Source: Escherichia phage Ec_Makalu_002. Taken from it: a stretch of DNA of 64,000 bases. A model generated the notes under the pieces. The model saw only the letters and a program-made list of their open reading frames with translations, made no database searches and was not told the origin of the DNA. The DNA lies in the sequence record MN709127.1; one strand, written 5' to 3'. Position numbers and translations under genes: made by a program. Below, one piece after another: positions 3,217 to 64,000 of the stretch; position 1 is the first letter of the stretch; the number at the start of each line of letters is the position of its first letter.

Positions 3217-5040
3217 TTAGCTACACATCCACTCTTTACGGCGGTCTGAATCTTCGCTATAGAGCAAATCGAATAGCTCTTTATAGTTTTCCGGTAACGT
3301 GATGATCTCCATGACAGGATCATTGATCACGCGATGATAATCTGATTCTGTAAGCGATGCTAACCCTTTGATATATCGAATGTTATAACCTTTGATATTA
3401 TCTCGGTCGTTCTCGAAATCTTCTAGGTCATAATACCATCGAACATCATCACCTTTCTTTGGTTCTGCAATGATAATAGGCGTTTTGATAAACCGGATTC
3501 GTCCATCTTCGAACAATTCAGGCCAACGTGCAAAGAAAGAGATCAGACTAGGCTTAATAGATCCGATCCCGTCAGTATCCGCGTCAGTCATAATCGCAAT
3601 ATTTTTGTATTGCATAACTTCCAATGCATCAACACCAAATTGCAAGCCAGTGATCGCCATGATGTTAAAAATTTCGGCATTCTTAACGATCTTTGCCTCC
3701 GGTTGTTCCCACGTTGTAAGAGTTTTACCTCGCAACGGGAAACCTCCATGTAAATCTTGATCACGTACAGAGATCAGATAGTTGATCGCGGAGTCACCCT
3801 CCGTCAGAAACAGGGTAGTTTCTGCGTCAGTTCCAATAAGGTTAGCTTTAACGTGTTTTGCTACCTTAGCCCGTTTTGCTGCCTTTGCTGCCTTAGTCGC
3901 TGCCGCTTTATCTGCTGCCTCTTTGCGTGCCAGGACTACAGCAATAATAGGCATGATAATGTTTTCTTTCTTAGCAATGACCTTAGCCAGCTTTTTAAAA
4001 TCAAGATCAATGTGACGCTTGATATCACCAGTCGGGTTAGTCAATCGCTCTTTTGTCTGTGAATCAAAGCGCAGGTTAGGCAATTCACGAACAATAAGAA
4101 TACAGGTCAAACCAGACTTAACCGCAGCTTTAGTAACATCAACCTTATATTCTTTCTTGATTCGTTTTACAATCTCTTCACAAAGATCATCTGTCACATA
4201 GTCTACGTGTGTTCCCCCGTTTTTGGTAAACAGACCATTAGCAAAGGATACAGATTTAAAACCTTCACCCTCAACCGCAGGAACTAGGGCAAGTGAAAAG
4301 TTTTTATCTTCAATGACAAACGGATCATCATTATAGAGTTTAGCATAGTCCTTGAACTTGCTAACAATACGTTTACCATTAAACTTAAACGTGATCTTAG
4401 GAAAGATTACGCTCAATGATTGCAGACGATCATGAACGATATCTAAAACAGAGTTGTCCATCATATAGCCTTCGAAGTGATCGAAGTCTGGACAAAATGT
4501 AACCTTTGTTCCTTTTAATTTTGATGGTTTTGATGACCATGTGATATTTTCAGCACCGTTGGTACATTGAACGGTCATTTCTGTTTCACCGTCACAGGTT
4601 ACACCAGTAAACCAATCGCTAAAGAAATTTGACAACGAAGATCCTACGCCGTTCATCCCTTGCGTTAATCGATTGGTATCATCAAAGTTAGATCCGGCTT
4701 TTGTTCTTGTCCATGCGGCGACTGGTTGCGGAATCTGCGTACCCTCTGGGGTAGTGACCATATGTTGAGGAATACCGCGACCATTGTCTGTTACCGTAAC
4801 AATATTGTTTTGGATATCGACGCTAATCACATTGGCAAATTCAAAATTAGTGCGGATCGCCTCATCTACAGAGTTGTCGATGATCTCATCAATGATTTTA
4901 ACCAGTCCAGGAACGTATGAAATTTTTGTCCACTTACCGAACAGGAAACGTTGATGTTCTTCGTAAGTAGTTGATCCTATGTACATTCCTGCACGCTTAA
5001 GGACATGTTCACGATCCGATAAAATGCGGAACTCACTCAT
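3217..5040 (-). CDS. 39: DNA topoisomerase II large subunit, gp39 with gp60 portion fused (GyrB-like)
   Basis: 607 aa; N-terminus MSEF..ILSD.EHV.KR.GMYIGS and DNGRGIP match T4 gp39 from memory; single continuous ORF. Confidence 0.85.
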   Translation of the reverse strand: MSEFRILSDREHVLKRAGMYIGSTTYEEHQRFLFGKWTKISYVPGLVKIIDEIIDNSVDEAIRTNFEFANVISVDIQNNIVTVTDNGRGIPQHMVTTPEGTQIPQPVAAWTRTKAGSNFDDTNRLTQGMNGVGSSLSNFFSDWFTGVTCDGETEMTVQCTNGAENITWSSKPSKLKGTKVTFCPDFDHFEGYMMDNSVLDIVHDRLQSLSVIFPKITFKFNGKRIVSKFKDYAKLYNDDPFVIEDKNFSLALVPAVEGEGFKSVSFANGLFTKNGGTHVDYVTDDLCEEIVKRIKKEYKVDVTKAAVKSGLTCILIVRELPNLRFDSQTKERLTNPTGDIKRHIDLDFKKLAKVIAKKENIIMPIIAVVLARKEAADKAAATKAAKAAKRAKVAKHVKANLIGTDAETTLFLTEGDSAINYLISVRDQDLHGGFPLRGKTLTTWEQPEAKIVKNAEIFNIMAITGLQFGVDALEVMQYKNIAIMTDADTDGIGSIKPSLISFFARWPELFEDGRIRFIKTPIIIAEPKKGDDVRWYYDLEDFENDRDNIKGYNIRYIKGLASLTESDYHRVINDPVMEIITLPENYKELFDLLYSEDSDRRKEWMCS

Positions 5041-5139
5041 TATTAAACCTCTTCATAACATAACCATAACTTACTGCAACCGCCACAAAGACGGCTGCAA
5101 CAATCATATTAAAAATTGAGTGATTGTCAAGTATATGAC

Positions 5140-5313
5140 TCATGACACGCGCACATTTTTATCGTAATACCCGCCATTAATACCGCGCGGGGCAGTTAAT
5201 CCCTGTTTACATTCTTTCCCACATTCAGGACATTCTGCCTTTTCACGCTCGGAAATTTTGCGGATTTTCTGGAATTGACCGTGTTCTTCACAAGAATAAT
5301 CGTATAATGGCAT
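5140..5313 (-). CDS. FmdB-family zinc-ribbon protein
   Basis: MPLYDYSCEEHG...CPECGKEC; paired CxxC motifs; start set at internal ATG 5313. Confidence 0.6.
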   Translation of the reverse strand: MPLYDYSCEEHGQFQKIRKISEREKAECPECGKECKQGLTAPRGINGGYYDKNVRVS

Positions 5314-5314
5314 A

Positions 5315-5983
5315 TTATCCCCTTTGTTTCTTAACTGAATTTGGATCTGGATTTTCTGGCAAGTCTTCCAGACCCATAGCATAACGTTGTGCATAGATTA
5401 GCATAAGAATATCGCGAGCGCAATCATGAATTGCATCATGTGCGATGAATCCGTCTAATGTACCCATTGGTAGCGGACACTCACACATACCACGATGCAT
5501 TAATGTGCGCTCAATGGCGGTGCGAACATCTCGGATGTTCCAGAATCGCACAGGTTCAAGATTAAACGTCTCGCGGGTATTATGAGCACGTCGAATCATA
5601 TCAACTAGTAACGGAATATCAAACGCATTACCGCGTGACCACATTACGGATTTAACCGGATCTACTCCTACGGATTCACAGAATGCGTTAAAACGCGCTA
5701 AACCTTCTTTGGTTGATACTTCCGTCCCATTTGTGATTAATTGCTTTCTCATGCCTTCTGAGGCGGTATTCTTCCACCATTCAACCACACCATGATCAAA
5801 GATCCTTACACCTTTCTGGGAAGGAATATCAAATTTTACCAGAAAGGAATTATCAACCAGTTCTTTAAATGTCGGTGGATTGTGTGGGTCTTCTTTAAAT
5901 CCGATTGCCGCCATATTGATTACCGCCCCATCAGGCGGATAACCTAAACTTTCAAAGTCAATCATTAAATCCACTGGAAGCAT
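5315..5983 (-). CDS. dexA: exonuclease A (DEDD 3'-5' exonuclease)
   Basis: MLPVDLMIDFESLG and FWNIRDVRTAIE resemble T4 DexA; start at internal ATG 5983. Confidence 0.8.
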   Translation of the reverse strand: MLPVDLMIDFESLGYPPDGAVINMAAIGFKEDPHNPPTFKELVDNSFLVKFDIPSQKGVRIFDHGVVEWWKNTASEGMRKQLITNGTEVSTKEGLARFNAFCESVGVDPVKSVMWSRGNAFDIPLLVDMIRRAHNTRETFNLEPVRFWNIRDVRTAIERTLMHRGMCECPLPMGTLDGFIAHDAIHDCARDILMLIYAQRYAMGLEDLPENPDPNSVKKQRG

Positions 5984-5984
5984 T

Positions 5985-6227
5985 TTAAATATCCTCCGCG
6001 ATGTGCCGGAACAACTCAAGATCGTTTTTGTCCAGAATGAAACCGCTACAATCAATAATTCCTTTACCGTAATTATCGGTTAACAGTCGGTCCGTTGCCA
6101 TGTATGCGCATACCTTGTTGTTAAAATTCATTACATGTTGTGCATAGTCACAATGAATCTTTTGACGGTTCCACGCGACAATTGATTCAAGATGAATTAC
6201 CTTAGAGATATCGTTAATAACAACCAT
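5985..6227 (-). CDS. hypothetical protein
   Basis: 80-aa ORF; its start codon and RBS lie inside the 58-bp direct repeat. Confidence 0.5.
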   Translation of the reverse strand: MVVINDISKVIHLESIVAWNRQKIHCDYAQHVMNFNNKVCAYMATDRLLTDNYGKGIIDCSGFILDKNDLELFRHIAEDI

Positions 6228-11240: not shown

Positions 11241-11249
11241 AATAACCTC

Positions 11250-11453
11250 TTATAGCTCAAATTTCATGAAAGTTCCAACACTTTCATTTTCATTCTCTCC
11301 GTTTTCATCTAAGCCAAATTTGTAGACACTACCATCTGGCGATGTGTAAGAGAATACACGAAAACGGCCTACCTGGTCAAGTTCTGTAAATTCATATTCT
11401 TTTCCTGCTTCAAAAAGTGCATATGTGCTTTTAAGACATTTCATCGTAATCAT
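11250..11453 (-). CDS. hypothetical protein
   Basis: 67-aa ORF; ATGA overlap with upstream ORF. Confidence 0.45.
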   Translation of the reverse strand: MITMKCLKSTYALFEAGKEYEFTELDQVGRFRVFSYTSPDGSVYKFGLDENGENENESVGTFMKFEL

Positions 11454-11593
11454 TTAAGCGCCACCGATAACAGAATGAGAACTACACCAACATACATTGT
11501 GATCTCGGATAACTTTTCTGTTTTTGTTTTGTGTCCAGATAATCCGAAAACAACAACACCGATAATAGCGGACAGCAAGCCAACGATAAACAT
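11450..11593 (-). CDS. hypothetical small membrane protein (47 aa)
   Basis: MFIVGLLSAIIGVVVFG...; hydrophobic; overlapped start and stop. Confidence 0.3.
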   Translation of the reverse strand: MFIVGLLSAIIGVVVFGLSGHKTKTEKLSEITMYVGVVLILLSVALK

Positions 11594-11600
11594 GATGATA

Positions 11601-11777
11601 CTAAGCACCGTCTTTCTCCTTCTTGCGTTTTTCTTTACCCACTACGCTAGGTCCACGATTGGTAATAGATCCGCTCGTTTCCCCTGCTGCGATCTTCTCA
11701 GGATTGCCGCCAGCATCACCAGCGGTCATATCTTCTTTGAGTTTATTTTCTTCAACAAACTGTTTAAAGCCAATCAT
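11601..11777 (-). CDS. hypothetical small protein (58 aa)
   Basis: MIGFKQFVEEN...; start overlaps stop of upstream ORF. Confidence 0.3.
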   Translation of the reverse strand: MIGFKQFVEENKLKEDMTAGDAGGNPEKIAAGETSGSITNRGPSVVGKEKRKKEKDGA

Positions 11778-12151
11778 AGAATAATCTCTTTCAGTAAGTC
11801 AACGATCTGGTCTTTCGTCAGTTTATCCTGATTCTCTACAATCTTGATAACACAAGCGTTAACATCTTTGCGAGTCACACGGGAGATCGTTTTAATACGA
11901 TGAAACGGTTCGTAGAAATATACTGCTTCATTATAGAGCGCAGCAATTTTTCGACGCATTTGATCTTTATCTGACAAGAAAACAAGTGTTGTTTTATGAC
12001 CTTCTACACCCGCCACGTTATATAGTTCAGCAACACCCCAACGACCTTCCGGTTCAATCATTCCGGCGTGTTTACCGTCGATAAAAATAAGAATATCTCC
12101 GTTGAATGCGGTTTTGAATGCTACATCTTCCGGCGTAATCATATTTTTCAT
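11774..12151 (-). CDS. hypothetical protein
   Basis: 125-aa ORF; SD AAGGAGA; between 61 and 41. Confidence 0.5.
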   Translation of the reverse strand: MKNMITPEDVAFKTAFNGDILIFIDGKHAGMIEPEGRWGVAELYNVAGVEGHKTTLVFLSDKDQMRRKIAALYNEAVYFYEPFHRIKTISRVTRKDVNACVIKIVENQDKLTKDQIVDLLKEIIL

Positions 12152-33546: not shown

Positions 33547-33557
33547 CTCACATTATT

Positions 33558-34100
33558 TCAAAGATCGCGATATTGTACATTATGAAAGTGAGAACTTGCA
33601 TTACCAATATTGTAGATAATAAATTCTTCATCCGGCGCTTGCGCTACAAATTGAGTATGAGCAACCGCCACAACCTTAAAAATACGATCCGTGATCTTGT
33701 GTTTAATTTCGGCTCCTACTTCCATAGGAACATATTCATGTGTTTCTGTTTCAGTCGCAAAAAAGCCATCTTCTTCATAAGCACGAACAAATCGATCGCA
33801 ATCAGTACGCTTAACAAATTCAAGAGTATACAATTCTCGTGAATTGTCGGTATATACCAATACAGAATTATTCTGATAGCGAATCACATACAGGTTATTA
33901 TCATCGTCAATTACGCAAAAGCTACGGATTTGTGTTCCTTCTCCTTTACTCCAGCAGATATTAACTACCGTTCCTCTAATAAAAAAACTTTCCTTTAAAT
34001 TAAAACTAGCCAATGTGCTAGCGTGCATTTTAACAACAACACCATCACCAATTTCCAGTTTACGAAGTTTAACTTCTTTGCTCAGTACACAAAACATCAT
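33558..34100 (-). CDS. hypothetical protein
   Basis: 180-aa ORF; SD GAGAGGA. Confidence 0.5.
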   Translation of the reverse strand: MMFCVLSKEVKLRKLEIGDGVVVKMHASTLASFNLKESFFIRGTVVNICWSKGEGTQIRSFCVIDDDNNLYVIRYQNNSVLVYTDNSRELYTLEFVKRTDCDRFVRAYEEDGFFATETETHEYVPMEVGAEIKHKITDRIFKVVAVAHTQFVAQAPDEEFIIYNIGNASSHFHNVQYRDL

Positions 34101-34205: not shown

Positions 34206-36068
34206 TTACATGTGCTTAACGCGGTTTACCATCTCGGAGTGTTTCCCGTGGTTAAATGGACGCAGATCAACAGATCCAAGATATCCACTAACGCGACGGA
34301 TGACATTCATCTTTTCCAGATTGTCATTGCCGCAATCAGGACAAACAAAACCAGACTCGGTCGCTCTCATTTCCTTAGTAGATCCGCATACATGACATAC
34401 ATCAGAAGGAGTATTAACACCGAAGTAGTGCAATTTATCCATTGCATAGTCTACTACAGTTTCAAGCCCTTTAATGTTGTTTTTCATGTCCGGGAACTCA
34501 ACATAAGAGATCATACCACCAGACGCCAGCCAGTGATAGTCTTTCTCAAAGTCGATTTTCTCAAACGGTGTAACTTTCCGGTCTACGTCAAGGTGGAATG
34601 AGTTGGTGTACCAATCTTTATCGGTAGCACCCTTAACAATACCAAATTGCTCTCGGTCCAGTCGATTAAATCGATAACAAAGGCTCTCGGCTGGCGTGCC
34701 GTAAAGACTAAACCCAAGTCCGGTTTCGTCCTTCCATTTTTCAGTATAATGACGCAGGATTTTAAGAATATGTTTACCGTATCGCTGCGCATCTTCCGAA
34801 TCAAACGGATGAACACCAAACAGGACGCTCAACACTTCATGTAAACCAATATACCCAAGAGAGATACTAGCGCGACCATCTTTCAGCACTTCCAAAATTT
34901 CATCGTTTTGATGAATACGGAAAAATGCACCTTCTGTATACAGCACCGGAGCAACATTGGCTTTAGCCCCTTTTAAAGCGTCTACGCGACTCATGAGCGC
35001 ATCAAAGCAAATAGGCAGACGATTAGCTAGCTCTTGTTCGAATAGCTCAATTCTGCGCATTACAGACGCTTTACCAGCACGACGCGCGGCAATAAGTGCA
35101 ATACGCGGAAGATTCAGAGTCACAACACCTAAGTTATTACGTCCGTCTAATACTTCTTCGCCTTTCTCATTATGCCACACACCCAGGAAGCTACGACAAC
35201 CCATCGGGCTAACCGGAACACTAGATCCAGTGATACTACGGTTATTCTTCGCAGAGATATAATCAGGGTAAAGACGCTTACTAGAACATTCCAATGCAAG
35301 TTGCTTAATATCGTAGTTCGGATCTTCCGGTTTAAGGTTTAATCCTTCTTCTAAGAACATCACCAGCTTAGGAAACACCGGAGTTATACCATCTTTACCT
35401 AAACCTTTAGTTCGAACTTTCAGGATCGCTTTCTGAATCAGTTTTTCTTCCCAGCTAGTACCCATACCAAAGGTTAAAGTCACAAAAGGTGTTTGACCGT
35501 TGGTAGAGAACAAAGTGTTGATCTCATATTCCAACGCCTGATATCCGTCTAGTGTTTCTTTTTCTGTCTTCTCTTGTGCATAGAGAGTATTAGCTTTGAT
35601 TCCGTAGGTTTCGGCATCAGCAAGATGTTTATGATATGTTTTCTTAACATACGGTGCTAACACCTGATCGATGTTTGCTATGGTAGTTCCGCCATATTGA
35701 TGACTTGCCACCTGTGCGATAATTTGAGCTGTTACAGCACATGCAACACCGATCGATTTAGGACTTTCGATTTGTGCGCTACCCAATTTAAAACCATTCT
35801 CTAACATGTCTTTGAGATTAACAAGACAGCAGTTAGTAAACGGCATAGCGGGTGCATAATCCATATCATGATAATGAATATCACCGTCTACATGCGCTTT
35901 ATAGATGTGCTCAGGTAACACGGTTTTAGCAATCTGTTTAGACACAGCACCAGCAATCAGATCTCGACGTGTCGGGAATGTTCGCGCGTCTTTGTTCGCG
36001 TTCTCTTTGCTTACTTCGTTTTCTTTACCCGTTGCGATCTCTGTAATGTCTTTGATTAGTTTTTCCAT
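34206..36068 (-). CDS. nrdD: anaerobic ribonucleoside-triphosphate reductase NrdD (glycyl radical enzyme)
   Basis: 620 aa; C-terminal Zn ribbon CHVCGSTK..CPDCGN and glycyl-radical motif RVSGYLGS; no intron. Confidence 0.9.
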   Translation of the reverse strand: MEKLIKDITEIATGKENEVSKENANKDARTFPTRRDLIAGAVSKQIAKTVLPEHIYKAHVDGDIHYHDMDYAPAMPFTNCCLVNLKDMLENGFKLGSAQIESPKSIGVACAVTAQIIAQVASHQYGGTTIANIDQVLAPYVKKTYHKHLADAETYGIKANTLYAQEKTEKETLDGYQALEYEINTLFSTNGQTPFVTLTFGMGTSWEEKLIQKAILKVRTKGLGKDGITPVFPKLVMFLEEGLNLKPEDPNYDIKQLALECSSKRLYPDYISAKNNRSITGSSVPVSPMGCRSFLGVWHNEKGEEVLDGRNNLGVVTLNLPRIALIAARRAGKASVMRRIELFEQELANRLPICFDALMSRVDALKGAKANVAPVLYTEGAFFRIHQNDEILEVLKDGRASISLGYIGLHEVLSVLFGVHPFDSEDAQRYGKHILKILRHYTEKWKDETGLGFSLYGTPAESLCYRFNRLDREQFGIVKGATDKDWYTNSFHLDVDRKVTPFEKIDFEKDYHWLASGGMISYVEFPDMKNNIKGLETVVDYAMDKLHYFGVNTPSDVCHVCGSTKEMRATESGFVCPDCGNDNLEKMNVIRRVSGYLGSVDLRPFNHGKHSEMVNRVKHM

Positions 36069-36079
36069 TGTATCACCTA

Positions 36080-36105
36080 TGAAAAAGCGGGATTTTCTCC
36101 CGCTC
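36080..36105 (-). terminator. hairpin AGCGGGA..TCCCGCT plus T-run immediately upstream of nrdD
   Basis: minus strand GAGCGGGAGAAAATCCCGCTTTTTC. Confidence 0.5.
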
Positions 36106-47184: not shown

Positions 47185-47383
47185 TCTTTACAGTCTCCAT
47201 AATTGTTTTGTAAGCCAGTTTAAGATGATCACCGAAAAACTTTGCGGTGTTACCTTTCGGATCGCGAAGCATGGTTTCTACGATCTCATCGGCAGTAACA
47301 ATTTCTCCTTTCTTTGCTGCATGTTCTACCATATACTTCAAAGTTTCTTCGGAAGCAAGTGCTGCGGCTACTGGATTAATCAT
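47174..47383 (-). CDS. hypothetical protein
   Basis: 69-aa ORF; SD AAGGAGAA. Confidence 0.45.
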   Translation of the reverse strand: MINPVAAALASEETLKYMVEHAAKKGEIVTADEIVETMLRDPKGNTAKFFGDHLKLAYKTIMETVKNAK

Positions 47384-47412
47384 TTTGATTCTCCTTTGTT
47401 GTCGATGTGTGC

Positions 47413-47441
47413 ATTATGCTATACTATATTCCGGTTGTCAA
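47413..47441 (-). promoter_or_regulatory. sigma70-like promoter (TTGACA-N17-CATAAT)
   Basis: directly follows terminator; CATCGACAAC box. Confidence 0.55.
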
Positions 47442-47444
47442 CAC

Positions 47445-47480
47445 CTAAAAACGAAAAAGCCACCCTTTCGGATGGCTTTT
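47445..47480 (-). terminator. rho-independent terminator (GAAA tetraloop)
   Basis: minus strand AAGCCATCCGAAAGGGTGGCTTTTTCGTTTTT. Confidence 0.65.
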
Positions 47481-47711
47481 GATTATATTTTATTCACGTC
47501 CATTTGTATAGTAGTGTTTGAATCGACCTTTGCTAAACTAGTTAAACATAGTAACCAATTCACCATCCCTTTCCAATGATAACCCTTCCTCGTCTTAGAC
47601 GGGTCTTCCGATTCGGCAGTAATTGAACACGCGAAAGTATGAGGAAGCCAAATAGTTGTGTTAATGCTAGTATTCTTTTACTTCTGGTATGCATCCACCC
47701 TGTGACTAACA

Positions 47712-58419: not shown

Positions 58420-58638
58420 TTATTTATATCGCTTTCTCTCGCGACGTTTTTGATCTTCTTCCTTGATAGAGTTAAATGCATCAAAAAGACACATGACACT
58501 AATAATAAACATAACCGTATTTTCTACGATATCCCACGGCTTCGCATCAGTACAGATCCCCCAAACGGTAAGAAATGCAAATAAGGCAGAAGAGATCACA
58601 AGCATGATACTTGCTAAGACATAAAAGGTCATCTTCAT
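58420..58638 (-). CDS. small membrane protein
   Basis: 72 aa; hydrophobic core, basic tail. Confidence 0.45.
   Translation of the reverse strand: MKMTFYVLASIMLVISSALFAFLTVWGICTDAKPWDIVENTVMFIISVMCLFDAFNSIKEEDQKRRERKRYK
58421..58428 (-). promoter_or_regulatory. T4-type late promoter core TATAAATA
   Basis: exact motif overlapping upstream stop, heading a 148-nt non-coding stretch. Confidence 0.4.
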
Positions 58639-60260: not shown

Positions 60261-60731
60261 TTACAGTTTGGTCGTCCACTCCAGATCTAGATCTTCGACA
60301 TATTCATGTGATCGGACAATCTCTAAATCGAACTCTAGGTCAGTGCCAAATTTACGCGCGCCAACATCATAAGAAAGCGTGATATGCGGTACATATTCAG
60401 GATAATCCCACGTCGCACCTAAAGCAGTTCCGATATCGTGTCTGAATTGCATGTAGTCGCTTTCAAATGCCAGCACAAGTGCATTAGTACCGGATTGAGT
60501 TTCAAACACTTTCAGATGGCACAGAGAGCCTAAGAACTTCTCCCCTTCTTCTGGGATAAACGGAACATAAACACGAGAATATAAGATCGTGCTATGAAGT
60601 TTATCACGAGGAACGGCATTAGGCAGATCGTAGAACTCCTGCAATTTTTCAATGCGGTCTAGTGTATCCTCAGTGAATTTAACCGCCGCATATGTACCTT
60701 TAACGGATTCTCGAAACGGGGTCATAATCAA
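60261..60731 (-). CDS. 2H phosphoesterase, Acb1-like anti-CBASS nuclease (T4 57B position)
   Basis: two H-x-T/S motifs (KLHSTILYS, VPHITLSY); directly upstream of 57A-1-3 as T4 57B. Confidence 0.6.
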   Translation of the reverse strand: MIMTPFRESVKGTYAAVKFTEDTLDRIEKLQEFYDLPNAVPRDKLHSTILYSRVYVPFIPEEGEKFLGSLCHLKVFETQSGTNALVLAFESDYMQFRHDIGTALGATWDYPEYVPHITLSYDVGARKFGTDLEFDLEIVRSHEYVEDLDLEWTTKL

Positions 60732-60994
60732 GCCTCCGTGATCAGTTCTACTTCCTCTTTATCGTCTTCCGCTGCCTCGTCTTTAGGGAGAAGTGCTTTT
60801 ACTTCTTCGACAATAGCATCAAGGGAAACAGTGCCGTTTTCGTCTGGCTGAATACCCAGAATGCGTACCAGTTCCATCAAGACACGCTCACGATCTTTCA
60901 GTTGGCCTTCTAAGAATGCGGCTTTTTCTTGAGTGTCAAACAGACGTACTTTCAGGACATTAATCATTTGTTCATGCTGATTGGACATATTCAC
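60728..60994 (-). CDS. 57A: tail fiber assembly chaperone gp57A
   Basis: 88-aa coiled-coil; FDTQEKAA and IVEEVKAL with acidic tail resemble T4 gp57A; ATGA overlap. Confidence 0.6.
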   Translation of the reverse strand: MNMSNQHEQMINVLKVRLFDTQEKAAFLEGQLKDRERVLMELVRILGIQPDENGTVSLDAIVEEVKALLPKDEAAEDDKEEVELITEA

Positions 60995-61692: not shown

Positions 61693-62283
61693 TTACTTTC
61701 TAAAAGCAGGGTGCATAGCTTTAATTCCTTCCACTCGCTGACGATCCGCCGCCTGAATTGCTGGGCGAGGAACGATCAGTTGACCATCACGTTCAATGCT
61801 CATTGTTTTAAATGGAAGAATTGCAGTACACACCAGAGATTCATGCATATCATCGGTGTATGTTAACTCAAGTTCCCCCAATTGTGAACACCAACAACCA
61901 TAAAAGTTAAAGGTGCATACAATGTTACGGCGTTCATTGTCCATCATGTGAACTTGAACGGCTTCCGGCATTGAATCCTTCCACGCGGTGGAGTTACCGT
62001 TATTGTAGTCTACTATAGAAAGCATCCATGTGTAAAGGTTTAGATAGCTTTCCAAATGCTCATCGACAATAAACCGGACTACCAGCGGGTCAAACTCTAC
62101 ATGACTGGAAGGATAATCAGCGACCGCCAAACCATATTGACCAGCAACTTGCTTAGTCGGTGGAATGGTTATAGCCGGAAGTGTAACACCTTGAGCATTT
62201 AAAGTAAAGCCTTTTGTTAGTTGACCATCTGGAATACTGATCTGCCAGTTACTAGGGTTAGCATAGTTAAAGAGATTAGACAT
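61693..62283 (-). CDS. 3: tail completion/sheath stabiliser protein gp3 (positional)
   Basis: 196-aa ORF after gene 1 as in T4 order 57A-1-3-2. Confidence 0.5.
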   Translation of the reverse strand: MSNLFNYANPSNWQISIPDGQLTKGFTLNAQGVTLPAITIPPTKQVAGQYGLAVADYPSSHVEFDPLVVRFIVDEHLESYLNLYTWMLSIVDYNNGNSTAWKDSMPEAVQVHMMDNERRNIVCTFNFYGCWCSQLGELELTYTDDMHESLVCTAILPFKTMSIERDGQLIVPRPAIQAADRQRVEGIKAMHPAFRK

Positions 62284-62472
62284 TACTGATTCCTCAAATG
62301 AAAATATTTATTAACAATTGTCGCTTTGCGACGTGCCGTAGGCACTGACTACTTTTTAACCGAAACAAATTTTTATTATTCTAAAGATCTTTCTTCGTTT
62401 TGGTTATGTTTTAACCAATAACTATATTTTTATACAGTAATAAATAAAACGGGTACTATACGAGGACTTCTT

Positions 62473-62727
62473 ATGACAGAAGACATTTTGTTAAAACTCT
62501 ATGATCGTTTGGATAACGAATTAGCAACATTGCGGGGTGAAGTTCTCTATTTGTCTAAATGTAATACAGATCTGCTTAAGCAGATTGCAGAAAGGGATGA
62601 CCAAATAAAATCCCTTTCAGGTGCATTACGTGACCGCGACAAGGCATTAGAGATTTTACAGCGTGTTACCAATAAGGAAGAATTAAAAGACTTCTTACAT
62701 GGTTATGCTCATGCTATCGATCTATAA
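62473..62727 (+). CDS. hypothetical coiled-coil protein (plus strand)
   Basis: 84-aa ORF; SD GAGGA; converges with gene 2 on a shared hairpin. Confidence 0.5.
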   Translation: MTEDILLKLYDRLDNELATLRGEVLYLSKCNTDLLKQIAERDDQIKSLSGALRDRDKALEILQRVTNKEELKDFLHGYAHAIDL

Positions 62728-62754
62728 TAAAAAAGCCCGTCATTGACGGGCTTA
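62726..62754. terminator. bidirectional hairpin terminator between convergent genes
   Basis: AAGCCCGTCATTGACGGGCTT; T-run on minus strand. Confidence 0.6.
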
Positions 62755-62757
62755 ATC

Positions 62758-63579
62758 TTATGCATCCTTCCAAACTTTCCTTGCGTCGTATTTCTTGCCT
62801 TTTGACATAAACTGATATGTAGGCATATAGATAATATTGCTCCAGTCTTTCGGGCTAATCTCAACAAGTTTTGTTTTAATGTGTCCCGGCAAGTATGCTT
62901 TGATCATGTGATCACTACCACGCATACCTTTTACATCGCTCCATTTGATTTTTAAGCGTGTTTTATTGCTCAAGGTAGGCGTAGATGCATATTGCTTTAA
63001 AAGTGCTTCCAGAAACTGCTGACGGGCTTTAGGCGTTACATAGTGTAAGTTAAGACCCAGCATTACAGTATTACCCGCCTTTGTCTTAGAATCACCCAGA
63101 CAAATGATCAGCGGGAAAACATCCCAATATGGCAAAGTGTCTTTATACTTCGCATCATACATAAAAGTATAGATTCGCCCTACTTGCGGTTTTACAATCT
63201 GGTGTCCCTTTATTCCCGCTTTTATTGTTTTGGTAAACCATTCCTGTGATTTTTCTTTAGGACGACTCTTTGATACAGCACGCATAGACGCACGAAAATC
63301 ATTAATCATCATCATTGCGCGTTGCTGCTTATTGAGACCCTTTGCACCTTTCCCTTTTAGTTTTTCAACTTCTATTGCTGTTTTAATTTCGCTGGCATAA
63401 CGAGACATACTTTTAGTGAAAGTCGCATAGGCTATTCCCTTAGAATCTGCAAATGCTTTAGCTGTCATGCCTTTGGCTTTTGCTTTCGCAAATTCTACAC
63501 CCAATTCGACCCACTGTTTAGACTTTCGCTTTTGGGGAGACGGCTTTTCGTCTTCTGTGATTATTTCAAATACGCTCAT
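62758..63579 (-). CDS. 2: DNA end protector protein gp2 (positional)
   Basis: ORF track 62758..63711; start moved to ATG 63579 (MSVFEI...) with SD AGGATAA; 273 aa, basic. Confidence 0.5.
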   Translation of the reverse strand: MSVFEIITEDEKPSPQKRKSKQWVELGVEFAKAKAKGMTAKAFADSKGIAYATFTKSMSRYASEIKTAIEVEKLKGKGAKGLNKQQRAMMMINDFRASMRAVSKSRPKEKSQEWFTKTIKAGIKGHQIVKPQVGRIYTFMYDAKYKDTLPYWDVFPLIICLGDSKTKAGNTVMLGLNLHYVTPKARQQFLEALLKQYASTPTLSNKTRLKIKWSDVKGMRGSDHMIKAYLPGHIKTKLVEISPKDWSNIIYMPTYQFMSKGKKYDARKVWKDA

Positions 63580-63613
63580 AATATTATCCTCTATGTTTAT
63601 GTATGTTACACAC

Positions 63614-63642
63614 TTGACAATCCTCTTTGCTATTGCTAAAAT
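63614..63642 (+). promoter_or_regulatory. plus-strand sigma70-like promoter (TTGACA-N17-TAAAAT)
   Basis: upstream of plus-strand HNH ORF; divergent from gene 2. Confidence 0.5.
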
Positions 63643-63705
63643 GCAGACGAAAATAAACAGCGATACTTGTTGATAAATATCATTATACCATAGGAGTAAC
63701 CTTAG

Positions 63706-64000
63706 ATGCAAGATATTAAGAACAAAATTTTGATGCAGTTTCCGAATGCAGATATCAAGTATTTAGAAAAGTATCTAGAAATTTGTGCAAACCCAGATAA
63801 GGATGGGGAATTAGAGAGGCATCATATTCTACCAAAATCAATTTGGAAGGAATATGAAGACCTTAAAATTCATGATTTTAATGCTGTTCACTTGAACACC
63901 GTTCGTCATATGATGGCACACTACTATTTCAGTAAAGCAACAAATTCCATTTGGAAGTCTGTTGTTATGATGTTTAATACCAGAATTGATATTATGAAGG
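63706..64000 (+). CDS. HNH homing endonuclease-like protein (5' part; runs off window end)
   Basis: MQDIKNKIL...ERHHILPKSIW..., HNH-type signature; SD AGGAG; no stop before 64000. Confidence 0.55.
   Translation, partial: MQDIKNKILMQFPNADIKYLEKYLEICANPDKDGELERHHILPKSIWKEYEDLKIHDFNAVHLNTVRHMMAHYYFSKATNSIWKSVVMMFNTRIDIMK

Follow-up and report, generated by a model that had tools for sequence, protein, structure and literature searches.

The junction between genes 3 and 2 of Escherichia phage Ec_Makalu_002 (MN709127.1) contains an 84-codon ORF on the strand opposite to both neighboring genes, which raises the question of whether a gene island has been inserted among the virion genes, as the initial annotation had proposed, or whether the ORF is a resident gene of this phage lineage, and what its product might do. 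The window (the whole 64,000-nt stretch that was analyzed) derives from a Krischvirus, an RB49-like T4-type phage. Krischvirus phages are used in therapy cocktails. Over the 2.2 kb around the ORF, the window is 96.7–99.5% identical to Escherichia and Shigella Krischvirus genomes (RB49, phi1, JSE, and GEC-3S, among others). The local gene order is 57B, 57A, 1, 3, the 84-aa ORF, and 2, and gp57A, dNMP kinase, gp3, and gp2 are supported by Pfam and PHROG matches. The genes and the ribosome-binding site on which the argument turns are as follows.

60728..60994, gp57A of the window phage (Pfam and PHROG match)
61693..62283, minus strand, gene 3, the left neighbor (tail tube terminator/sheath stabilizer; PF06841, E 1.6e-7; phrog_45, E 3.9e-43; gene 3 in the RB49 annotation)
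62462..62466, plus strand, Shine-Dalgarno sequence GAGGA, 6 nt 5' of the ORF ATG (RBS in the Makalu_003 annotation)
62473..62727, plus strand, the 84-aa ORF (RB49p130/phrog_17832), with an ATG start and a predicted coiled-coil product of 9.7 kDa and pI 5.1
62758..63582, minus strand, gene 2, the right neighbor (DNA end protector; phrog_429, E 2.4e-72; gene 2 in the RB49 annotation)
63706 onward, running off the window, plus strand, HNH homing endonuclease gene behind a near-consensus sigma-70 promoter

The window had been described as minus-strand throughout apart from the 84-aa ORF. For PHROG-supported ORFs of at least 80 aa this is accurate with one exception, the HNH gene at 63706; no plus-strand ORF of at least 80 aa with a PHROG match was found in the window besides these two. 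The HNH gene occupies the position next to gene 2 that is held by gene 4 in RB49. It and a second endonuclease gene (positions 906–1934 of contig L026) are separate, variable insertions, and the genuinely mobile insertions of this neighborhood are homing-endonuclease genes on both sides of gene 2.

The ORF itself is present as first described, on the plus strand between gene 3 and gene 2 with an ATG start. Its protein is identical to RB49p130 (NP_891701.1) at 84 of 84 residues and matches phrog_17832 over the full profile (E 2.1e-57; residues 1–84 on profile positions 1–84 of 84, PHROG search). Position, strand, spacer, and terminator are likewise the same as for RB49p130, with nothing that differs; the ORF is the same gene in another Krischvirus isolate. 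The gene is therefore already known: it entered GenBank with the RB49 genome under the label “hypothetical protein,” and no record assigns it a function. A length of 84 codons is not significant in itself, as the ORF listing of the window includes dozens of antisense shadow ORFs. We judge the ORF to be real because it lies in a free gap, is preceded by a Shine-Dalgarno sequence, is conserved, and has the substitution pattern of a coding sequence. Relative to RB49 there are three synonymous and no non-synonymous changes. Relative to two more distant uncultured lineages, the values are pN 0.183 and pS 0.660, with dN/dS 0.13 (L006), and pN 0.186 and pS 0.773 (L003); pN of 0.18 against pS of 0.66–0.77 points clearly to purifying selection. 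These properties identify the ORF as a genuine protein gene that is conserved, syntenic, and under purifying selection.

The sequences on either side of the ORF bear on when it would be expressed, and three elements are relevant here.

62305..62312, minus strand, late-promoter-like box AATAAATA, 22 nt upstream of the gene 3 ATG and conserved in L003
62439..62446, plus strand, late-promoter-like box AATAAATA, 27 nt upstream of the ORF ATG
62733..62753, both strands, shared bidirectional terminator hairpin of the convergent ORF and gene 2, with a 9-bp stem including six GC pairs (terminator on both strands in the Makalu_003 annotation)

The octamer AATAAATA occurs twice in the 64 kb, against 7.9 occurrences expected, and both are in the spacer between gene 3 and the ORF, one per strand, placed back to back 126 bp apart. 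The site aligned with the ORF box is the canonical T4 late box TATAAATA in L003 and L006, and only CTAAATA in L007; the Krischvirus box is a 7/8 variant. The broader pattern [AT]ATAAATA has 21 occurrences in the window and the rest of RB49, and 16 of these (both spacer boxes included) are located 21–56 nt upstream of an annotated start on the same strand. Apart from the spacer boxes, the sites among these 16 precede genes 53, 9, 18, 20, 22, 23, 24, uvsW, inh, uvsW.1, 51, 31, 34, and 36, such that the starts downstream of the 16 sites are nearly all those of late genes. RB49 late promoters commonly have A or T at position −13 (Nolan et al., PMC1524935). Nolan et al. predicted 17 late promoters in RB49; neither spacer box is on this conservative list, which is also without a promoter for genes 3, 2, and 4.

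No sigma-70-type promoter serving the ORF was found, nor any promoter-like site within 62306–62472 on either strand. A weak sigma-70-like site at 62277–62305 (9/12) was considered as an early promoter for the ORF and rejected; its −35 hexamer overlaps the start of gene 3, and it is not conserved in L003. By the sequence test applied to T4-type late genes, the ORF has a TATAAATA-type box at −13 to −6 located shortly upstream, and no early promoter. A search of the literature on RB49 and Krischvirus found no transcriptome, no virion proteome, and no mention of the ORF. From the boxes and their placement, the spacer probably holds two divergent late promoters, and there is a good likelihood that the ORF is transcribed late. 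A gp55-type late promoter at 62439–62446 (AATAAATA) would drive late transcription of the ORF, and the gene 3 late promoter (AATAAATA at 62312–62305, minus strand) would fire divergently, back to back with it. The ORF transcript would then stop at the hairpin that is common to the ORF and gene 2. The stop codons of these two genes are 30 nt apart with a single 21-nt hairpin between them, with perfect 10-nt arms and folding energies of −15.1 and −16.2 kcal/mol on the two strands, accompanied by a T-run (minus strand) and an A-run (plus strand); the proposal that the ORF converges with gene 2 on a common hairpin terminator is thus well founded. Published surveys place the novel ORFs of T4-like phages in the early class (PMC1524935). 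In an RB49-like genome, few non-T4 ORFs have a late-type promoter box in place of an early one, and this ORF is among them.

The spacer between gene 3 and the ORF (62284–62472) is 189 bp long and has a GC content of 29.6% (window, 40.4%), a value this low being reached by only 0.2% of 189-nt windows. It had been described as an AT-rich region with small palindromes, which agrees with its composition and with the four palindromes that were located in it. These palindromes belong to a longer unit with the following components.

62311..62418, repeated intergenic cassette, consisting of the tandem hairpins, an AT-rich stretch that contains the palindrome AAAGATCTTT, and the palindrome at 62400–62418
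62320–62332 and 62333–62345, either strand, two abutting 5-bp GC-rich hairpins with 3-nt loops, GTCGCtttGCGAC and GTGCCgtaGGCAC
62383–62392, palindrome AAAGATCTTT, within the AT-rich stretch
62400–62418, palindrome TTGGTTA-N5-TAACCAA

The tandem hairpins have a folding energy of −13.5 kcal/mol and are folded on both strands. Across five copies and orthologs, 98% of cells are paired, compensatory double changes occur at 6 of 10 pairs, and there are no one-sided changes. A second copy of the cassette (110 nt, 92.7% identical) follows the gene 35 terminator and precedes the gene 36 late promoter in RB49 (L023 35982–36091), and this copy is also present in phage kvi; at genes 3 and 36 the cassette has the same orientation relative to the downstream late gene. 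Two degenerate copies are in the RB49p164|p165 gap, and the cassette is present at three to four places in every Krischvirus record. Most of the spacer is therefore a repeated cassette and is not private to the ORF.

No description of the tandem-hairpin cassette was found in the literature, and Arbiol et al. (2010; PMC2839356) do not mention this locus. The nearest known counterpart is the PeSL cassette (promoter-early plus stem-loop) of RB49 and phi1, whose defining feature is a consensus sigma-70 early promoter (Arbiol et al., 2010; PMC2839356). Like a PeSL, the spacer cassette is a repeated intergenic element with stable stem-loops beside a lineage-specific ORF, in the same genus. However, it has no sigma-70 promoter, its stems are two abutting 5-bp hairpins as opposed to the polyG/polyC stems of PeSLs, and it is located upstream of late promoters (genes 3 and 36). 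Assignment to the PeSL class was rejected: the cassette has the stem-loops and the repetition of a PeSL but not the consensus sigma-70 early promoter. It could serve as a backup terminator or a processing site, as an insulator placed before late promoters, or as a module for recombination.

The structured flanks also raise the alternative that the ORF is not translated at all, and that the conserved entity is an RNA or DNA element (for example, a transcript, antisense or spacer, that keeps genes 2 and 3 apart) of which the reading frame is a by-product. Conserved structured elements on the flanks are in keeping with this, as is the folding of the spacer, which is better than that of shuffled sequences (z −2.8 and −3.4), and as is the existence of frameshifted variants of the ORF. 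However, the changes relative to RB49 are all synonymous, and the comparisons with L003 and L006 give pN/pS of ~0.25 with pS saturated. Furthermore, the frame, the length (80–84 aa), and the C-terminal motif of the protein are kept down to 44% identity, the Shine-Dalgarno sequence is at the right distance, and there is no Rfam match in the spacer or in the whole window. We regard an untranslated element as barely credible.

The distribution of the ORF bears most directly on whether it is an insertion. It is present in all 58 records that match the locus and that constitute the Krischvirus set, in 52 of them at a protein identity of at least 99% (tblastn). Three more distant uncultured (metagenomic) lineages carry a homolog at the same site and in the same orientation, with identities of 72% (L006), 67% (L003–L005), and 44% (L007/L008). 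In all of these contigs (L003–L008) the homolog is opposite in strand to genes 3 and 2 and abuts the 3' end of gene 2. In L003–L006 it sits between gene 3 and gene 2, and in L007 two further plus-strand genes are located between the homolog and gene 3. The L003–L006 relatives came from the search of 5.8 billion proteins, whereas the 44% lineage came from a profile run against 1.84 billion representatives, which contributed a single further true homolog (P0008), encoded on a 168-kb T4-like contig. Identity to these relatives is 67%/44% for the ORF, 58%/47% for gp1, and 72–78% for gp3 and gp2; the ORF has diverged in step with its neighbor genes.

Beyond this clade the ORF was not recovered. Searches of 5.8 plus 1.84 billion proteins, IMG/VR, and JGI metagenomes gave no homolog outside the clade, and the IMG/VR and JGI scans for further relatives returned near-identical Krischvirus loci only. 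The ORF is absent from the 2|3 junction in six T4-like groups (Tequatrovirus, Karamvirus, Dhakavirus, a Klebsiella phage, Tulanevirus, and an Acinetobacter phage), and no small unannotated homolog is present in the larger 2|3 gaps that occur in T4-like phages of Aeromonas and Acinetobacter. In T4 itself, genes 2 and 3 are 106 bp apart with no ORF between them, in agreement with the initial annotation that the gene is extra relative to T4.

The same annotation read the ORF as an inserted gene island, and it named related phages carrying the same ORF as part of their conserved core as the observation that would refute this; on such a reading, the ORF would be a recent mobile island or moron, inserted by horizontal transfer together with its promoter and terminator and variable among close relatives. 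Related phages do carry the ORF as a conserved set (58 of 58 Krischvirus records plus the three distant lineages, always at the same site), and the claim of an inserted island is therefore not supported. An insertion would fit the opposite strand, the ORF's own promoter-like box and terminator, its absence from T4 and five other T4-like genera, the other cargo that the junction holds elsewhere, and the repeated cassette in the spacer, which could serve recombination. However, the in-step divergence argues against a recent arrival, as does the GC content of the ORF (36.9%; gene 2, 39.8%; window, 40.4%). No match to a nuclease, integrase, recombinase, or transposase was found for the ORF in Pfam, PHROGs, or NCBIfam, and the lack of any homolog outside the clade among 5.8 plus 1.84 billion proteins also counts against horizontal transfer. 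No empty 3|2 site was found among the 58 Krischvirus records and the sister-lineage contigs. A recent mobile origin is consequently very unlikely, and the ORF instead appears to be a lineage-specific gene that is old and vertically inherited. Its acquisition would thus predate the diversification of the Krischvirus clade, at a junction open to cargo; the ancestor of the clade may have gained it by an ancient insertion, yet this would not be an “island” in any operational sense.

That the junction accepts cargo is illustrated by the Pseudotevenvirus RB16, in which RB16p185 (phrog_7322) is likewise an opposite-strand gene lodged between genes 2 and 3. Unlike the 84-aa ORF, RB16p185 encodes an unrelated protein of 261 aa (blastp E 0.19 over 24 residues; a different PHROG), and has come to occupy this junction independently. 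Additional genes have repeatedly landed in the 2|3 junction and on the flanks of gene 2, namely the RB49p130 gene, RB16p185, the two additional genes of L007, and two different homing endonucleases.

The AlphaFold (AF2) model of the ORF product consists of a long helix (residues 2–64) and a short helix (residues 68–83), with a pLDDT of 90.5. In the best heptad register, 13 a/d positions are hydrophobic. The helix prediction and the heptad pattern fit the coiled-coil assignment made at the outset, and the model makes an oligomeric coiled coil the likely form of the product. Residues that are invariant across homologs include LRDR.KA.E.L.R and a C-terminal FL.GYAH, the latter carried by the short helix. 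Searches against Pfam, PHROGs, NCBIfam, PDB profiles, BFVD and PDB structures (Foldseek), and 5.8 plus 1.84 billion proteins recovered members of the family or generic coiled coils only; matches to generic long coiled coils that consisted of many short stretches were rejected as compositional.

Among characterized phage proteins, the product is reminiscent of T4 gp57A (PF17594), the small coiled-coil tail-fiber chaperone. Both are acidic proteins of ~80–88 aa that are mostly one long helix, both are encoded in the same block (57A-1-3-2), and there is a local resemblance over L[KR]DR[ED][RK].L..L.R[IV]. However, the FL.GYAH tail is missing from gp57A, and the ORF has a late-type promoter box only. 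Alignment of the ORF with six gp57A sequences gave an hhalign probability of 40% at 17% identity, with the register shifted by one heptad from the best local match, and there was no match of the ORF to PF17594 or phrog_1002 at E 0.1 or better (Pfam, PHROGs). Any two coiled coils would be expected to show this much similarity. A gp57A paralog was not adopted as an explanation. The phage also encodes a separate, true gp57A, at 60728..60994.

Natural variants provide some indication of how much the phage depends on the gene. In isolate FL20, a 1-nt deletion cuts the ORF to 45 codons, and in three Illumina-assembled contigs (L026–L028) a run of four A residues at codon 46 is extended to six. Both could be sequencing errors. 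Because two independent lineages carry frameshifts, we judge the gene to be probably dispensable, at least on laboratory hosts, and the same variants speak against a structural role that is essential. The overall best explanation, to which we assign a probability of roughly 0.6, is that the ORF is the clade gene RB49p130, probably expressed late and non-essential. Its significance beyond annotation is small, and nothing points to an unusual mechanism.

The product of such a gene would oligomerize as a coiled coil and act late in infection as a non-essential accessory factor. It may be an assembly helper or adaptor for the head and tail completion proteins that are encoded around it, working in a manner like that of gp57A but not belonging to the gp57A family; this morphogenetic role is a tentative guess, drawn from genomic context and timing.

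The main rival for the function of the gene is a non-morphogenetic one, in which the product would be a regulator of infection timing or host interaction (such as a lysis-inhibition accessory resembling T4 RIII, or an anti-defense factor) and its position among virion genes would be incidental. T4 RIII, the lysis-inhibition accessory protein of 82 aa, is likewise a small, helical, cytoplasmic protein, so that the product has the same size class and helical character. RB49 has no recognizable rIII: none is annotated between genes 30 and 31, and a tblastn search with T4 RIII of the window and the rest of RB49 gave a best E of 0.038. The apparent dispensability of the gene in FL20 and L026–L028 is usual for accessory genes, and restriction to one clade is typical of host-interaction genes. 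However, rIII has a different genomic location, and hhalign of the ORF family against RIII gave a probability of 0.6%, such that RIII is a speculative functional analogy for the ORF product. There is also no PHROG or Pfam link to a lysis or defense family, the gene is located tightly beside gene 2 in every lineage, and it has no early promoter, whereas the anti-defense genes of T4-like phages are usually early (PMC1524935). A regulator is on balance unlikely, and somewhat less favored than the assembly helper.

A broader reading would connect the RB49p130 gene to the element beside it. The cassette could be to late genes what the PeSL is to early ones (a module for insulation, termination, or recombination), and it could have shaped the junction and let an opposite-strand gene lodge there; the 84-aa protein could be a new late accessory factor of the Krischvirus clade, with a role in head or tail completion or in lysis timing. 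As a joint proposal this is doubtful, more so than the regulator reading. The cassette upstream of genes 3 and 36 is a candidate module for late-gene regulation or for recombination in Krischvirus, and one that can be tested.

The junction between genes 2 and 3 of the Pseudotevenvirus RB16 also holds an ORF on the opposite strand, although its 261-aa product is unrelated to the 84-aa plus-strand ORF (RB49p130) that occupies this position in the Krischvirus Ec_Makalu_002:

RB16 (L011) 726-1511, opposite strand: 261-aa ORF, phrog_7322

As the two ORFs are unrelated, the junction has been colonised independently. In the most distant relative, a T4-like contig (L007) encoding an 80-aa homologue of the 84-aa ORF, the junction extends to 1.76 kb (region 4512-6000) and includes several GC-rich hairpins, a sigma-70-like promoter, consecutive direct repeats of the GCGATTAC type at about 4800-4960, and two ORFs, all upstream of the homologue. 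These ORFs encode a 64-aa helix-turn-helix-like protein and a 204-aa protein with a coiled-coil C-terminus, neither of which had a Pfam or PHROG match. Genes 2 and 3 of Acinetobacter phage vB_AbaSI_3 are separated by 282 bp (L020 1219-1500) containing about five tandem 18-bp units (ATCTGATACATCTATATC) preceded by a terminator-like hairpin, and the corresponding gap in an Aeromonas phage (L018 1226-1494) contains several hairpins; the junction appears to be regulatory in other genera as well.

The spacer between gene 3 and the 84-aa ORF carries a repeated intergenic cassette composed of tandem hairpins, AAAGATCTTT, and TTGGTTA-N5-TAACCAA, which is present at 3-4 places per genome in all Krischvirus genomes, including the following copies:

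62311-62418, the window
35982-36091, RB49 (L023)
33556-33613 and 33683-33796, L013
1501-1610, L022

The late promoter of gene 36 is immediately preceded by a cassette copy with 92.7% identity, and the gap between RB49p164 and RB49p165 contains two degenerate copies. Identity with PeSLs, the early-promoter and stem-loop cassettes of RB49 and phi1, was ruled out because the cassette has no sigma-70 promoter.

Nolan et al. (PMC1524935) predicted a strong late promoter (score 15.4) directed against genes 35 and 36, which lie on the other strand, at a location (L023 35935-36003, corresponding to 149953-150021 of the RB49 record) where the promoter's own strand has no annotated gene. This predicted promoter coincides with the complement of the gene 35 terminator T-tail (TATAAAAAATAAAG), and its position relative to the cassette equals that of the promoter box of the 84-aa ORF in the spacer; a terminator tail may double as a late box for the opposite strand. 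Canonical TATAAATA boxes number two in 64 kb, against 5.4 expected, and both are on the minus strand, inside the minus-strand gene block that makes up most of the window. These and a further promoter-like site are as follows:

48433-48440, minus strand: canonical late box
58421-58428, minus strand: canonical late box
62066-62093, minus strand: sigma-70-like site within gene 3 (TTGACC, 16-nt spacer, TATTGT)

The site within gene 3 could allow gene 1 (dNMP kinase) to be transcribed early, without dependence on the late gene 3.

A frameshift affects the 84-aa ORF in two lineages, phage FL20 and a set of three Illumina contigs that come from a single study:

L025 301-551 (FL20): 1-nt deletion near codon 42
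L026 619-798, L027, and L028 1501-1680: A4 run at codon 46 expanded to A6, giving a 59-aa product

In a third variant (P0007, 53 aa, from a protein collection) the codon-46 run reads A5, as deduced from the protein sequence alone. The run may be slippery; alternatively, these frameshifts may be sequencing artefacts or a true loss of function.

Gene 2 is also flanked by homing endonuclease genes, including the second plus-strand gene of the window (region 63614-64000):

63614-63642: near-consensus sigma-70 promoter (TTGACA, 17-nt spacer, TAAAAT, with TG) ahead of the HNH gene
63706 to beyond the window end, plus strand: HNH homing endonuclease, phrog_655 (E 3.6e-10)
L026 906-1934 and L027 384-1412: 342-aa endonuclease, phrog_681 (E 2e-79)

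Among the 40 records listed of 58 matching, only PHB13 and Cognac span the HNH gene, and the match ends at query position 1995 in most; the HNH gene is therefore a truly variable and mobile insertion, lying between genes 2 and 4. The phrog_681 endonuclease represents a second, distinct insertion beside gene 2, located in some Krischvirus variants after the stop codon of gene 2 and before the terminator shared with the 84-aa ORF. This same insertion may explain why the matches of phiS and FL37 are split.

Elsewhere in the window, minus-strand ORFs of at least 80 aa are absent from two gaps (11241-11773 and 47185-47711); the plus-strand ORFs filling them (11475-11831 and 47225-47482) had no PHROG match. 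Three Krischvirus GenBank records (MW748999, MN850615, and OP114734) start exactly 36 nt upstream of the 84-aa ORF, which they place at 37-288, thereby dividing the spacer between the record ends; this start looks like an annotation convention rather than biology.
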